A DNA stretch of 64,000 nt, taken from the NCBI GenBank assembly GCA_021513715.1, contig CP084167.1:1088001-1152000 (forward strand), given 5' to 3'. The position numbers were made by a program, and so were the translations under genes. Positions 9,482 through 15,188 of this stretch are shown in pieces (position 1 is the first letter of the stretch; each line of letters starts with the position of its first letter). The notes under the pieces are model-generated. The model was given only the letters and a program-made list of their open reading frames with translations. It had not been told where the DNA came from and made no database searches. This DNA is from Candidatus Heimdallarchaeum endolithica. Lineage in GTDB: Archaea > Asgardarchaeota > Heimdallarchaeia > Heimdallarchaeales > Heimdallarchaeaceae.

Positions 9482-9777
9482 CTCTTATTCTTAATAATTC
9501 AAATTTATTTTTTTTAATTTTTTATGTAATACTAAACAATTAACACATTATAGTCTTGCTTTCTCTACATTTGTTATCATATTATTACTTACTCACAACA
9601 AAATTAGAAAATCTTGTTTTACTTTTTTGTACAAGTTAGTAAAAGAGAATAAATGAAGCAAAGAGAATTGAATTTAGGTTTAAATAGAGAAAAAGAGATA
9701 GAATAAGTGATAGAGAAAATTGAACAATTCTTGTTTCATTTGGAGTTAAAAAAGAGAGGGATAACTAATTTAGTTTC

Positions 9778-11865
9778 TTAAGCTATTACCTCTAATCCTT
9801 CTTCAGTTAAATAATTAATTACTTTTTCTCTGAAATTATTGTAATCTATATTCAGCTCATTTATATCTTTACCTTGATCTACTTTATCACAGAAATCTTT
9901 GAAATAAAACCCCCAAATTTCGAAAGGTGCAGATTTTTTGAAAGTATTGTAAATATTATGAAATGTCTGTAAAAACTCTTTTTCTGTTGCATTAAGGTCG
10001 TTAAAGAATCCACCAAAAAATTCATGGTTTAGCCTGTCAATACACTCTTCAAATTCATTGCCCTCTACCTTAAGACAGTTTGGTAAATTATGCACACTAT
10101 CGATAACATCTTTTATTTCTTTAAAGAACTCCGCACCTTTAATCTTAGAACCTAATCTCTTGAATTCTTCATAAATTTTGATTAAAGATTTAACAAATAA
10201 CCAACAAATTTCCAATATAAAGGGGTTTACTATTCCAATGAACACCATATTTGACTTAATATTTGGTGAATAATTTTGTGTCAAAGATTCTGAAATATAA
10301 TTATTGCCTAAACCCAAACCATATTTCTGATATAATTTTTGTTTATTTTTGTTTCCATCGTCAAGTAGTTCATAAAACTGTTTAGCTAATTTTTGTTCTG
10401 CAGTAGATGGTGCAATAATCAATCTTTTTGAATAGTTTTGTGATATAAACTCAAATTTTTCTTTAATTTTTTTCTTCACTTCTTTGCTTTTAGTATCAGA
10501 AAATTTAATCCAAATTACATCCGCAAATGTTTGTTTTGAAAGAGCAATATCCATCCATTGTAATAAATTTGTATTTTTCATATCTTTAGAATAAAAAACT
10601 GCTGGTACAATGATATAATTCCCTTTTAGAGGTCCATAATCCTTATATGTTTTTTCATCAAGCTCGTTCGGTCTCCTAAATATGTCAGTCGAGCTTATTT
10701 TAATATAATCGTTGGCCACTCGTCCTTCAAGAATATCGTTGACATCAAACATCCCAATATTCATTATTGGAGCGAGAACTAACTTTGTTATTGCTTCATT
10801 TATTTGAAAAAGTATATTATCTTCGCACTGAAAAGGATATAATATGTCATAGTTGAATGGAATAATTGTTTCTTTGATTTTTTTGTTTGTTACAAAGTAA
10901 TTCATTAAAGTCAAGGGATGTCCTATTTCACAAAACAAAACTCTTTGAAGACCAATTAAACATGAGACTTCGTCCACATAAGCGCCTTCTCCGAGAATTG
11001 AGAAAGCAATAGCTTTCTGTGGGCTCGCTTCTTTATAATGTTGTATTATTTTTAGTGATTCAAAAAATTTTTTACCTTTATTATTATAGTTTTTGTCATA
11101 TTTTAAAATAAATGGGTCATGGAGATAAGTAATTAATTTTCCTGTTAAACCAGAACCAGTTCCTCTTCCTAGTCCGTGAATATAAAAGAATATCGTTGCT
11201 TTTTTTTGTATGTCTGTTGTTTCGTCTCCATGCGAATATCTAAATAAATCAGGTGGCCAAAGACGATTAGAAATATCTTGCTCAAAAAGTTCTGTTTCGC
11301 TATAATTTTCAGGATTGAAAAAGTCTTCTGCAACTTTACGACCACCATACCAAAATCCTCCTGCACCCAATCTGTCTACAACTGTTGGATCTATACTAAT
11401 TCCTACAAAATTATACAAAAATTCTTCTTTAATTCTAGTTTTATTTAATAAATCACTTTGCTTTCTAATTCTTCGTGGAAAATCTTCTGTTGGAGGTTCT
11501 GTTTTAACATTCTGTCGCCACCAATTATACGCGTAGACCAAATATTTATTTTCTAAACGATTACTGTTTTCTGCATCATGAACAGCCCCTTCCAAGGAAG
11601 TATTTATAAACCAAGCACCAATAACCTTTGAATTCTTTTGAAATTCAATCTGGTAATTTGATCTAAGTTTAGCTTCATGATTTAGATAAGTTACCAATAC
11701 ATTGCATCCACAATCACCTACACCAAAAAGCATAGTTGCAGAATTTATATTTGTTTTATGTATTATCCAAGAATTTTTAATTCCATTTTCATTATTACTA
11801 TTTTTTTTGAAAATTTTTTTAGTTATCTTTTTAATTGCATCTAGATATGTTTTAAGTTTAACCAT
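9778..11865 (-). CDS. Divergent tubulin/FtsZ-superfamily GTPase with insertions and a helical C-terminal extension
   Basis: T1 GVGDCGCNV, T3 GAGGFWYGG (cf. tubulin GAGNNWAKG), T4 HGLGRGTGSG (cf. HSLGGGTGSG) and a T7-like MFDVND, in the correct order. Confidence 0.85.
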   Translation of the reverse strand: MVKLKTYLDAIKKITKKIFKKNSNNENGIKNSWIIHKTNINSATMLFGVGDCGCNVLVTYLNHEAKLRSNYQIEFQKNSKVIGAWFINTSLEGAVHDAENSNRLENKYLVYAYNWWRQNVKTEPPTEDFPRRIRKQSDLLNKTRIKEEFLYNFVGISIDPTVVDRLGAGGFWYGGRKVAEDFFNPENYSETELFEQDISNRLWPPDLFRYSHGDETTDIQKKATIFFYIHGLGRGTGSGLTGKLITYLHDPFILKYDKNYNNKGKKFFESLKIIQHYKEASPQKAIAFSILGEGAYVDEVSCLIGLQRVLFCEIGHPLTLMNYFVTNKKIKETIIPFNYDILYPFQCEDNILFQINEAITKLVLAPIMNIGMFDVNDILEGRVANDYIKISSTDIFRRPNELDEKTYKDYGPLKGNYIIVPAVFYSKDMKNTNLLQWMDIALSKQTFADVIWIKFSDTKSKEVKKKIKEKFEFISQNYSKRLIIAPSTAEQKLAKQFYELLDDGNKNKQKLYQKYGLGLGNNYISESLTQNYSPNIKSNMVFIGIVNPFILEICWLFVKSLIKIYEEFKRLGSKIKGAEFFKEIKDVIDSVHNLPNCLKVEGNEFEECIDRLNHEFFGGFFNDLNATEKEFLQTFHNIYNTFKKSAPFEIWGFYFKDFCDKVDQGKDINELNIDYNNFREKVINYLTEEGLEVIA

Positions 11866-11872
11866 GTTTGTT

Positions 11873-13894
11873 TTACCTCCATATTAAGCGACTACTTCTA
11901 TTCGGTTTTTCCATTTCTTCAATAACAGTCTCCAAAAACTTGTTAATATTCTGATAATTTCCAATCGCAGAAACTGGATCCTTTAGCATAAGCAATTCTT
12001 GATTTACATTGTTAAGATATTTCTTTAAGAAACCAATAAAAATATAATTCAAGCTTCCTTTGTTTCTATCAATAAATTCCTCTATTTTATTTCGTAAATC
12101 AAGATATTTTTGTTTTTCTTGTGATAAACTAGTACTATAATCAGAATCGGTAATCTGAATTGAAATAAGCAAATCTTTTAAAATTGTTTGAATGTTCTGA
12201 GATAAGTCTTTTTTAGATGAAAAGTTTTCATTTGCATTAGCCAATTTAGAAATCGTTTGATCAACAATTTTTTCTAAATTCGATCCAGTACTACTTTTTC
12301 GTTCTTTACTTATTTCCTCAGATATTTTTGTTAGATATTTATCAAATTGTTCTTCTTGGGCTTTTAAGCTACGTAATAACTCAGTTTTTTCAGCTATAAA
12401 CAATTTATAATTAGACTTAATAATATATAAAACAACAGCGATAATTAAAGTATCACTAAATTCATGTTCATGCTTGTATTTATTTGCAAAAATATTACTA
12501 AAAACTGATAAAAATGAATCTTCCTTTTTAACTGGTAAAAAATTAAAAAACATATCTAAATAGTCTTGAAATTCCGTTCTTAACGCTTCATAGGATTCAA
12601 TTTGATATTTATCTAATTGAGATTCAAAATTTTCCAATATTCCTTCAACTAGAGCGATAATATCATAGAGTATATTTTTTTCATATTCAATACTCTTTAT
12701 TGCTTCTAATGCTTTAGTTTCATTCTGTGATATTATTTTTCGAATACCAATTTGTGATAATTGATTGAAATCAACTGCTTTTTTGATATCTTCACCAAAA
12801 CAGTTCTGAATAGTTTTGCAAAGTTTTTCAATATTTTCAAGCTCACTCTGGTTTATCTCAAATTCAAATAAGTGTCCAATTGCTTTTTCTGGTGTGAAAT
12901 ATGTTAACTCCTGAAATGATTCTAAAATATCCTCACTGATAATTATTTTTTCTTTCAGAAACCTATTTTTAATTGAAGAAAGATTTTTTTCTAAAATTTC
13001 AATTCGTTTTCCTAATGAGCTAGTCTCTAGTTTCTCATCTATAACCATATCTTTAACGATGTCAGAAAGTAATTTAGAGTAGTTTATCAATAACTCAAGA
13101 AAGGAGATAATTAACTTTTGAGAACAAAAAATAAAAGGATAAAAATCACCTGTATTACTTTTGTCCGCTATTGAACGTAATTTATCATGATCATCCAAAA
13201 TGTAACTTGAACCGTTGCTAATTTCTCGAAAGGTCGCAATAATACTAGATAGATATCTAGAGATATCTTTCATTACATTATGTATTTTATTCATTTCTCT
13301 ATTTATTTCTTTTAAGTTTTTTGAACTAACAATTTCTTGATATTCACTATCTGATGAAATATCAGAACGAGAAATTTCCTCTTGATCTTCATCATACTCA
13401 TCGGATTCATCCCTAACAGTTTCACTAGTGAGTCTAAAAGAATCAGAAACCATAGTATCGGATACTGAGGTAGCATCATCAGAAGTATTATGACCTACTA
13501 AAATATTCGTTATTTCTGTTTTTAGTGTTTGAAGGAAATTTATATCTTGTTTCTTTTGCTCTTCGATTTTTAAAATTAGCTTTTCTGACAACTCAAATAA
13601 TTTTTCACAAAGTTTCTTAGGATTTTTTGCCATTTTTTCATCCTTTAAATTCAGTTTATCATCAATATTATTCTTAAGTAATTCAATAATTCTCATTGAA
13701 GCATCAGATATGGTATTTCCATATAAGTGTTCAATGAAACTATCTTCAACTGAAATATTGTCTAAGTTATAATCACTAATTAATCTTGAAAACAAACGTT
13801 TTAAAAGCTCTAGATCCTGCTTTTTTGTTAAGAGAAACTTGTACCCAAAAATTGTTAATTTCAATTTTTCTTTATTATATTTGACAATTTTCAT
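11873..13894 (-). CDS. Large alpha-helical/coiled-coil protein in the tubulin-like operon
   Basis: 673-aa ORF rich in E/K/L/I with an acidic linker; 7-bp gap to the GTPase gene and 1-bp overlap with the upstream gene. Confidence 0.75.
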   Translation of the reverse strand: MKIVKYNKEKLKLTIFGYKFLLTKKQDLELLKRLFSRLISDYNLDNISVEDSFIEHLYGNTISDASMRIIELLKNNIDDKLNLKDEKMAKNPKKLCEKLFELSEKLILKIEEQKKQDINFLQTLKTEITNILVGHNTSDDATSVSDTMVSDSFRLTSETVRDESDEYDEDQEEISRSDISSDSEYQEIVSSKNLKEINREMNKIHNVMKDISRYLSSIIATFREISNGSSYILDDHDKLRSIADKSNTGDFYPFIFCSQKLIISFLELLINYSKLLSDIVKDMVIDEKLETSSLGKRIEILEKNLSSIKNRFLKEKIIISEDILESFQELTYFTPEKAIGHLFEFEINQSELENIEKLCKTIQNCFGEDIKKAVDFNQLSQIGIRKIISQNETKALEAIKSIEYEKNILYDIIALVEGILENFESQLDKYQIESYEALRTEFQDYLDMFFNFLPVKKEDSFLSVFSNIFANKYKHEHEFSDTLIIAVVLYIIKSNYKLFIAEKTELLRSLKAQEEQFDKYLTKISEEISKERKSSTGSNLEKIVDQTISKLANANENFSSKKDLSQNIQTILKDLLISIQITDSDYSTSLSQEKQKYLDLRNKIEEFIDRNKGSLNYIFIGFLKKYLNNVNQELLMLKDPVSAIGNYQNINKFLETVIEEMEKPNRSSRLIWR

Positions 13895-14523
13895 TAAATC
13901 ACATCCAATATTTTTTTGAGGTTTTTATCAAATTTAGATAAATATCTAGAAACTTTTTTTAATTCTTCTTTCAGTTCTTTGTTTTTCTTATTCAGTTCTT
14001 TGTTTTTCTCACTCAGTTCTTCGTTTATCTTATTCAGCTCTTCGTTTTTCTTATTCAGTTTCTTTATCTTATTCAGCTCTTCATTTTTCTCACTCAGTTC
14101 TTCGTTTATCTTATTCAGCTCTTCGTTTTTCTCAGTCAGTTCTTCGCTTATCTTATTCAGTTCTTTGTTTTTCTCACTCAGTTCTTCGTTTATCTTATTC
14201 AGCTCTTCGTTTTTCTCACTCAGTTCTTTGATCATTTTTACTTTTTTATACTTTAACTCATTTACCTGTTGAGATAACTCAGAACGCGCAGACTCTGACC
14301 CATTTTCTTCTTGAGTTAACTCAGAACGCGCAGACTCTGACCCATTTTCTTCTTGAGTTAACTCAGAACGCGCAGACTCTAACTCACTTTCTTCTTGAGT
14401 TAACTCAGAATTCGCAGACTCTAACTCACTTTCTTCTTGAGTTAACTCAGAATTCGCAGACTCTAACTCACTTTCTTCTCGAGATAATTCAGAATTATTG
14501 TTGGAAATTTTATTCACCACCAA
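13894..14523 (-). CDS. Coiled-coil protein built from heptad tandem repeats
   Basis: (ELTQEESELESANS)x~5 followed by (EELSEKN/EELNKIN)n; stop overlaps the start of the next gene. Confidence 0.75.
   Translation of the reverse strand: MVVNKISNNNSELSREESELESANSELTQEESELESANSELTQEESELESARSELTQEENGSESARSELTQEENGSESARSELSQQVNELKYKKVKMIKELSEKNEELNKINEELSEKNKELNKISEELTEKNEELNKINEELSEKNEELNKIKKLNKKNEELNKINEELSEKNKELNKKNKELKEELKKVSRYLSKFDKNLKKILDVI
13958..14229. repeat. Intragenic 21/42-bp tandem repeat encoding EELSEKN/EELNKIN heptads
   Basis: Recurrent ttattcagctcttcgtttttctcactcagttcttcgtttatc units; boundaries approximate. Confidence 0.9.
14268..14493. repeat. Intragenic 42-bp tandem repeat (about 5 copies)
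   Basis: Recurrent ttcttcttgagttaactcagaa(cg/tt)cgcagactct(aactcact/gacccatt) units; boundaries approximate. Confidence 0.9.
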
Positions 14524-15188
14524 TATAAATCAGTTTAGTATAAATACTCATAATCTAGTAATTAATCTTTCTACTTTATCTTTGTACTAATTGTTCCTCG
14601 ATTGAGAAATAATGCATTAATTAAAAAACCACAAATAACTTTTAAATTTTATGGGATTTTGATCTAGTTTGCTTTCATACAGAATTTGGTTATAAACAAG
14701 TAAATAAGTGAAAAATAAACGAGTAAAATCTGGGCTTTATAACCTTTTCCTATTTTAGTATTTGTCTTAGTGCTTTTGAATACCTAATAACTTTTGATAT
14801 TTTTTAAATTTTTTAGGAACCAAGCCGCTTATGGTCGCCACTAACAGAGGAAAAATTGTTTGGGTCTTTACGTCTTTTTGGTATCCAATGGTGAGTTGTT
14901 CAATATAGAACTAGTTTTAAATTAAACAATTCATTGCCACATTTGGGATTCCGCTGGTCCAACCAACCCGTCTGTCTTTTTTCATTCTCTTTCAGAGCTA
15001 TTTATAGTTCTTAACATCTCTCAAGTTTTCTTACCATCTTTAAGCTATTAGTACATTCTTCTTCTCCACCAGTTTCTCAGACTTTCTCTATTTATTCCTT
15101 TTCACACGGAAAGTAGTTCAACTATATATTATCAATAAATTGTATCAGAAATATTTATAAATTTTAATTGGTAGTATTTTTGATTGGT

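Follow-up and report, generated by a model that had tools for sequence, protein, structure and literature searches.

A candidate filament operon around a probable, extremely diverged tubulin/FtsZ-superfamily protein in a strain-specific island of Candidatus Heimdallarchaeum endolithica

A three-gene locus with a tubulin/FtsZ-like gene

The locus analyzed here lies in a 64,000-nt stretch of the Candidatus Heimdallarchaeum endolithica genome (CP084167.1, positions 1,088,001-1,152,000; assembly GCA_021513715.1), which is referred to as the window. Three open reading frames (ORFs), all on the minus strand, occupy window positions 9778-14523 and encode proteins of 695, 673 and 209 amino acids (aa), designated P0001, P0002 and P0003 (Table 1). 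A previous sequence-only reading of this DNA had proposed that P0001 is a divergent tubulin-like protein, that it may not match the described Asgard tubulins and that it is accompanied by two coiled-coil proteins. Several profile tests above the genome background, together with collinear motifs, indicate that P0001 very probably belongs to the tubulin/FtsZ superfamily. With less assurance, we somewhat favor the view that the three genes constitute an accessory, dispensable filament system around this real, extremely diverged GTPase-like protein.

The spacing of the three genes suggests that they are co-transcribed as one operon. The P0003 stop codon and the P0002 ATG overlap by 1 bp (reading TAATG), and the P0002-P0001 junction consists of TAA, 7 nt and ATG, so both couplings named in the sequence-only reading (a 1-bp overlap and a 7-bp gap) can be read directly. 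A convergent gene flanks the operon at one side and a divergent gene at the other. The TTTATA hexamer is a possible archaeal TATA box of a leaderless operon transcript, the run of six T is a candidate archaeal terminator, and all three proteins would probably be translated from a single transcript. The P0001 gene is real and maintained, as indicated by its long open frame (695 codons), native codon usage, Shine-Dalgarno-like motif, gene overlap and T-run terminator. Its G+C content is 29% compared to about 31% for the genome, and its codon usage is nearer to the genome mean than that of 94% of similar-length ORFs.

Table 1. Features of the P0001 operon, with positions in the window
Feature	Position	Strand	Remarks
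P0001	9778..11865	minus	695 aa, ATG start; diverged tubulin/FtsZ-superfamily GTPase-like protein (probable)
P0002	11873..13894	minus	673 aa, ATG start; acidic helical partner
P0003	13894..14523	minus	209 aa, TTG/GTG/GTG start cluster; coiled-coil protein
P0001 basic amphipathic helix, residues 3-21	11803..11859	minus	hydrophobic moment 0.65
P0001 T1 loop GVGDCGCN, residues 48-55	11701..11724	minus	hydrophobic strand before; aligns with T1 of FtsZ, Asg.Tub and FtsZl2
P0001 T3 loop GAGGFWYGG, residues 167-175	11341..11367	minus	tubulin-type aromatic residue at position 6
P0001 T4 signature GLGRGTGSG, residues 231-239, R234	11149..11175	minus	within Pfam PF00091 match
P0001 T6-like FVTNKKIK, residues 324-331, N327	10873..10896	minus	E-INS-i alignment with FtsZ, Asg.Tub and tubulin; motif level only
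P0001 H7 helix and T7 loop, residues 345-380, FDVND 373-377	10726..10833	minus	FtsZ-profile domain 337-380
P0001 hydrophobic segment, residues 540-558	10192..10248	minus	Kyte-Doolittle 19-residue mean 2.16; in helical tail
GGAGGT Shine-Dalgarno-like motif	11875..11880	minus	within P0002 3' end, 10-15 nt upstream of P0001 ATG
TTTATA hexamer	14539..14544	minus	16-21 nt upstream of P0003 start cluster
Run of six T	9748..9753	minus	25-30 nt past P0001 stop codon

Evidence for membership of P0001 in the tubulin/FtsZ superfamily

P0001 comprises an FtsZ-like core (about residues 40-460) followed by a helical tail of about 235 aa (residues 461-695), and its T1-T3-T4 inserts, when compared with FtsZ or tubulin, are extended by about 30 and 23 residues. 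The excess length, insertions and helical tail reported earlier were borne out, the protein exceeding the FtsZ of the same genome by about 300 residues. The motifs given for T1, T3, T4 (GRGTGSG) and FDVND were likewise all found in the translation. The T1, T3, T4, T6 and H7/T7 elements are collinear between P0001 and the tubulin/FtsZ family profiles and alignment. The register of T7 is ambiguous: the alignment to FtsZ retains N369 and D374, and the alignment to FtsZl2 (LDANDL) retains D374 and D377. Under either register the predicted acidic catalytic residue is kept. Outside the core motifs, residues 3-21 form a candidate membrane-targeting helix, and the segment at residues 540-558 may be buried as a helix or may insert into the membrane.

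Background scores for the profile tests came from all 3463 ORFs of the genome with a length of 100 aa or more. The Pfam model PF00091 matched P0001 with an E value of 1.6e-4 and 22.4 bits over residues 222-250 only (T4 region), and in a six-frame search of the genome P0001 scored 14.6 bits, third best after FtsZ and an FtsZ-like gene. A profile of nine proteins from Asg.Tub, a CetZ-like Asgard group (Santana-Molina et al. 2023, PMC9871819), and one Asgard tubulin gave 16.0 bits for FtsZ, 15.3 for P0001 (rank 2), 14.8 for the FtsZ-like gene and 7.2 for the next ORF. With an FtsZl2 profile built from eleven proteins, P0001 ranked first in the genome (10.8 bits, next ORF 5.8 bits). In a motif census of the 3463 ORFs, the T4 pattern G.GTG[STC]G occurred only in FtsZ and P0001, both of which also fit the T1 and T3 patterns; a chance origin of the P0001 motifs is thus not expected.

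Alignment-based comparisons pointed in the same direction. The FtsZ profile matched P0001 in three collinear pieces, namely T1 (residues 22-57), T4 (215-239) and H7/T7 (337-380), and hmmalign likewise placed the protein in local pieces only. In an hhalign comparison with the FtsZ profile, T3 and T4 of P0001 were linked over a 30-residue insert (E value 3.9e-4). The top hhalign scores of P0001 were 38.3 for FtsZ, 38.2 for FtsZl2, 35.5 for FtsZl1 and 33.1 for Asg.Tub. When 26 ORFs picked at random from this genome were compared with three of these profiles (FtsZl1 excepted), the maxima were 20.9, 23.8 and 24.8.

In the ESM Atlas, the ten best family-bearing feature matches of P0001 were all to tubulin-clan proteins, the top one scoring 0.88 (178 of 256 features). 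The neighbors listed for the Atlas model of P0001 were all tubulin-family or tubulin-like proteins, with template modeling (TM) scores of 0.32-0.43. P0002, which was used as a control, yielded no usable feature match and retrieved random folds at a TM score of about 0.2. Searches of P0001 against PDB sequences, NCBIfam, PHROGs and PADLOC gave no match.

The Arg in T4 had been regarded as unusual in the sequence-only reading. This Arg (R234) is present, and GRGTGSG deviates from the strict signature [SAG]-G-G-T-G-[SA]-G at position 2; however, the substitution is less odd than it appeared. In this archaeal family, the canonical FtsZ of four genomes, representing three genera, reads GLGKGTGTG, with a Lys where P0001 has R234, and the GKGTGTG of these bona fide FtsZ proteins misses the strict signature likewise. 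R234 can therefore be considered tolerable in P0001. The GLGKGTGTG variant was seen in L001, the FtsZ of the source genome (G000:C1:2129735-2130919), and in L060, L061 and L062, while GGGTGTG is otherwise near-universal and is retained in the FtsZ of the sister family (L063, L064).

Comparison with described families

In a tree of GTPase cores, FtsZ, FtsZl1, FtsZl2 and Asg.Tub were recovered as clades with support of 99-100, and P0001 fell outside all four. Its branch (2.9 changes per column) joined an unresolved polytomy with a tubulin, the genome's FtsZ-like gene, Asg.Tub and FtsZl2. The tree, which does not sample CetZ, TubZ and artubulin, rules out the four sampled clades and gives no sister group. 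The suspected mismatch with the described Asgard tubulins was upheld, since P0001 lies outside the Asg.Tub clade, has no Tubulin_C match and matches PF00091 only in part. Overall, P0001 fits no described tubulin/FtsZ family. Its motifs form a mosaic, in which T1 is like that of Asg.Tub and FtsZl2 (GIGECGSN and GLGRCGSN, respectively), the Trp of T3 is tubulin-like, and the S4-T4 block and T7 are like those of FtsZl2. Its architecture, as judged from the sequence, most resembles FtsZl2 and FtsZl1.

FtsZl2 proteins are proteobacterial and solitary, without associated genes (Makarova & Koonin 2010, PMC2875224). They share with P0001 their length (about 705-750 aa compared to 695 aa), T1-T4 inserts of similar length, a non-canonical C-terminal region of about 250-300 aa, the T1 motif GxGxCGxN, the S4-T4 block FFYIxxxGxGTGSG and the T7 motif DxND. 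In contrast, the FtsZl2 scores of P0001 are weak (10.8 bits; hhalign probability of 24.5%), the FtsZl2 clade is monophyletic without P0001 (support 99), T3 is tubulin-like and not GGAGNAP, and P0001 is archaeal and part of an operon. An end-to-end alignment of P0001 with FtsZl2, including a C-terminal motif, was rejected: 104 of 452 conserved columns were identical, compared to 73-103 for shuffled sequences and 82-100 for other ORFs.

FtsZl1 (Pfam Tubulin_2, PF13809) is likewise long, with an FtsZ-like N-domain carrying T1-T4 inserts and a helical C-terminal region (PMC2875224). It also resembles P0001 in having lineage-specific partner genes and the T3 motif GAGGxxxxGR, and the hhalign match to it spans T1-T4 (E value 8.8e-4). 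Nevertheless, neither PF13809, even at an E value of 10, nor our own FtsZl1 hidden Markov model (HMM) matched P0001, which also lies outside the FtsZl1 clade (support 100). P0001 has a recognizable H7/T7 where FtsZl1 does not, FtsZl1 carries its coiled coil in cis and the P0001 operon in separate genes, and the vWA-domain partner typical of FtsZl1 was not found near P0001. Among 301 Asgard genomes sampled, the sole clear FtsZl1 gene (L011:54-3408; PF13809, 121.8 bits) directly follows a gene for a 470-aa protein.

With Asg.Tub, P0001 shares the Asgard origin, the T1 motif G[IV]G[ED]CGxN, an aromatic residue in T3 and a location in a co-oriented row of three genes with large helical proteins outside known families. 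The Asg.Tub-type profile also gave the best score of our own-profile HMMs for P0001 (15.3 bits). Asg.Tub proteins differ in being 454-459 aa long, Pfam passing (64 bits) and conserved across Asgard lineages; P0001 lies outside their clade (support 100), and their gene is the middle one, between those for proteins of about 1170 aa and about 359 aa. These partners were considered as possible kin of P0002 or P0003 and were found to be unrelated by hhalign, and neither of them matched Pfam. No Asg.Tub gene was found among the searched genomes of the source genome's family. In all five loci L055-L059 (e.g., L056:4849-10868), one neighbor of Asg.Tub is a helical protein of about 1170 aa (or 1023 aa), and the neighbor on the other side has about 359 aa (or 305 aa).

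The FtsZ of the source genome shares collinear T1, T3, T4 and H7/T7 elements with P0001, as well as a basic residue after the first Gly of T4 GxGTGxG (K in FtsZ, R in P0001). The two proteins differ in their Pfam scores (153 bits compared to 22 for P0001), and our own FtsZ HMM assigned P0001 only 4 bits (genome rank 20); the T1 Cys and T3 Trp of P0001 are tubulin-side features. Compared to the eukaryote-type Asgard tubulins, these two residues are the only tubulin-like ones, since OdinTubulin and AtubA/B carry GQxGNQ in T1 where P0001 has GVGDCGCN. Two tandem eukaryote-type tubulin genes were observed in an Asgard genome of the same order (L014:1246-3211 in G032; the second gene is cut by the locus end), with T1 GQAGNQ and GQAGLQ and with T3 GAGNNFAVG and GAANNWARG.

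TubZ and PhuZ are divergent tubulin-like GTPases with a long C-terminal extension that work with adaptor proteins and are encoded on accessory DNA. The TubZ, PhuZ, RepX and CetZ models of PHROGs and NCBIfam did not match P0001. The P0001 operon further differs from TubZ/PhuZ systems in that no TubR-like gene and no iterons lie nearby and that P0001 has no plasmid or phage relatives.

The partner proteins P0002 and P0003

The claim of two coiled-coil proteins held for P0003 and in part for P0002. In P0003, 86% of the sequence lies in heptad-like windows, forming a near-continuous coiled coil. The protein is encoded largely by two tandem arrays, both in frame and heptad phased, at positions 14250-14494 (42 bp, 5.8 copies, 92% match) and 13970-14228 (21/42 bp, 80-89% match). 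P0002, by comparison, is a helical protein whose heptad-like stretches form seven separate segments of 28-66 aa; these amount to 46% of its length, which corresponds to the 95th-99th percentile of the genome. It also contains a disordered, acidic Ser/Asp/Glu-rich linker at about residues 135-190.

Pfam searches of P0001, P0002 and P0003 revealed no effector domain such as that of a nuclease or protease. PADLOC yielded a weak Csx1 match for P0002 (16.7 bits) and generic coiled-coil matches only for P0003. Other archaeal tubulin-like genes, OdinTubulin and Asg.Tub among them, have been described to adjoin unknown coiled-coil genes (PMC9871819).

Distribution and genomic setting

P0001 was searched for in large collections, and no relative was found. 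Only the protein itself was retrieved by a word-indexed search of 5.8 billion protein clusters, by a full phmmer search of 1.84 billion representative proteins and in 41 related genomes. The six-frame translations of 400 Asgard genomes gave matches at chance level only, and there were none in a set of one genome per prokaryotic species, in IMG/VR or, by tblastn, in plasmids and phages. P0002 likewise matched only itself in the 5.8 billion clusters and in 47 genomes of the order. The P0001 operon is thus a singleton among the collections searched.

The operon is located in an island of about 31 kb (genome positions 1,074,056-1,105,445, equivalent to window -13,944 to 17,445; upstream part, L054:4056-18000). 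In a genome of the same genus (G001), the flanking regions show 90-97% DNA identity and 83-99% protein identity, and the operon is absent. The same slot in this sister genome holds only about 3 kb, including a EutA-like gene (L010:462-2525) that adjoins EndoV and encodes an actin-fold ATPase of 687 aa with an N-terminal extension of about 210 aa. This gene was considered as a P0001 counterpart and rejected as unrelated.

Besides the operon, the island contains genes for a transglutaminase/AAA_13 protein, a double AAA+ ATPase, a giant immunoglobulin (Ig)-repeat surface protein and a radical SAM protein as well as several unknowns. No integrase, replication or capsid gene was found in the island, no tRNAs in the window, and no TubR-like small DNA-binding gene or centromere-like iterated repeats in either flank of the operon. 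The module is accessory, as a canonical FtsZ is present and the operon is missing from the sister genome, and it was recently gained or lost. It resembles neither a fresh import from a donor of foreign composition nor a recognizable mobile element.

Proposed function and alternative explanations

We infer the fold, GTP binding, polymerization, membrane binding, partner contacts and role of P0001 from its sequence. Polymerization-dependent GTP hydrolysis requires the loops that contact the nucleotide (T1, T3, T4 and T6) and an acidic T7, and P0001 retains these loops together with an acidic H7/T7. The protein would polymerize head to tail in a GTP-dependent manner. P0002 and P0003 may bundle or cap the filament or link it to cargo, with the length of the P0003 coiled coil being set by gain and loss of repeats. 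The N-terminal amphipathic helix of P0001 could tether the filaments to the membrane, as is the case for OdinFtsZ1, which binds membranes via such a helix (PMC12583498). Since the genome has a normal FtsZ elsewhere, P0001 is not the division protein. Being a singleton in a strain-specific island, the module is also not a conserved Asgard cytoskeletal system. A more far-reaching version, which we put forward tentatively as possible, is that P0001 is the first member of a new lineage of the superfamily and that, with two unrelated helical proteins as partners (one of them tunable in length through its repeats), it makes up a working three-component filament system, which a Heimdall-group Asgard strain would have acquired recently from a gene pool not yet sampled.

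Several observations weigh against a filament system built around a tubulin/FtsZ-superfamily protein. The PF00091 score stays below the 33-bit gathering threshold and covers T4 alone, and the profile alignments of P0001 reach probabilities of only 12-36%. R234 breaks the strict tubulin signature, one Asp of the FtsZ T7 is missing in one of the two registers, and the full-length likeness to FtsZl2 is no better than that of shuffled sequences. No alignment could be built for folding P0001, because it has no homologues; for the same reason, conservation and covariation cannot be read for function or partner contact. The AlphaFold2 single-sequence models reached a predicted local distance difference test (pLDDT) score of 34.5 for the whole protein and 31.4 for residues 36-470, and the Atlas model is itself poor (predicted TM score of 0.45). 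Short alignments of low probability, a Pfam match under the cut-off and uninformative AlphaFold2 models would also be seen if P0001 did not have a tubulin fold and its glycine-rich motifs matched by accident in an unrelated helical protein. We consider such a coincidence improbable: four or five motifs occur in the right order with plausible spacing, P0001 holds genome ranks 1 to 3 with three independent profiles, its hhalign scores are 8-17 units above the random-ORF maximum, and its language-model neighbors are uniform, unlike those of the control protein P0002. Rather unlikely is also that P0001 is a relic, i.e., a fast-evolving or decaying, non-polymerizing pseudo-GTPase or a gene being lost, kept by chance in one strain. 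The operon's singleton status (no relatives in 1.84 billion representatives, 5.8 billion clusters and 400 Asgard genomes), its absence from the sister genome, its position in a replacement hot spot, the Arg for Gly in T4 and the very long branch would agree with decay. On the other hand, the reading frame stays open over 695 codons of AT-rich DNA, the codon usage is that of the genome and the translational coupling signals are preserved. All nucleotide-contacting motifs are kept, though relaxed selection would erode such motifs first, and the family's own FtsZ has a Lys at the same T4 position.

The strain-specific location could also be explained by an integrated plasmid or virus that carried a type III TubZ/PhuZ-like partition module, with the coiled-coil proteins as TubY-like adaptors; TubZ-type proteins are very divergent and act with adaptor proteins. 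To this we assign a low probability, as neither a TubR-like gene nor iterons were found in the flanks, the island has no integrase, replication or capsid gene, the window has no tRNAs, codon usage is native, and P0001 lacks PHROGs and NCBIfam matches as well as relatives in plasmids, phages and IMG/VR. Fast turnover in a defense or counter-defense system would account for the orphan status, which together with strain specificity is typical of conflict genes, and the variable island offers suitable company in the transglutaminase/AAA_13 protein, the double AAA+ ATPase and the giant surface protein, as does an AAA_15/AAA_21 ATPase carried by the window. Such a role is nonetheless hardly probable given that the three proteins contain no effector domain and that PADLOC returned nothing for P0001 and, for P0002 and P0003, no more than the weak Csx1 and the generic coiled-coil matches, respectively.

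The P0001 operon is a new singleton within a known superfamily, and its Asgard setting and total lack of relatives are striking. As a singleton, it says little about the origins of eukaryotes. It suggests that the Asgard tubulin/FtsZ superfamily includes strain-specific, extremely diverged members that are overlooked by standard annotation and reside, together with helical partners of their own, in variable parts of the genome. If P0001 polymerizes, the known sequence space of cytomotive filaments would widen, and the operon would offer a compact three-protein system for how variable-length coiled-coil adaptors tune a filament.

Further observations in the source genome

The second PF00091 gene of the genome (L002:141-2601) encodes a 379-aa protein with T1 VGDAACT and T4 GGGTGSAG and starts 10 bp after a gene for a 436-aa polytopic membrane protein. 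In the upstream part of the island, the transglutaminase-core protein with the AAA_13 match comprises 862 aa (L054:8032-10620, minus strand) and the protein with two AAA+ domains 1094 aa (L054:10655-13939, minus strand). EndoV, which lies at the island edge, shows 54% protein identity between the source genome and G001. A second insert that is present only in the source genome when compared with G001 was observed at window positions 18.1-27.6 kb.

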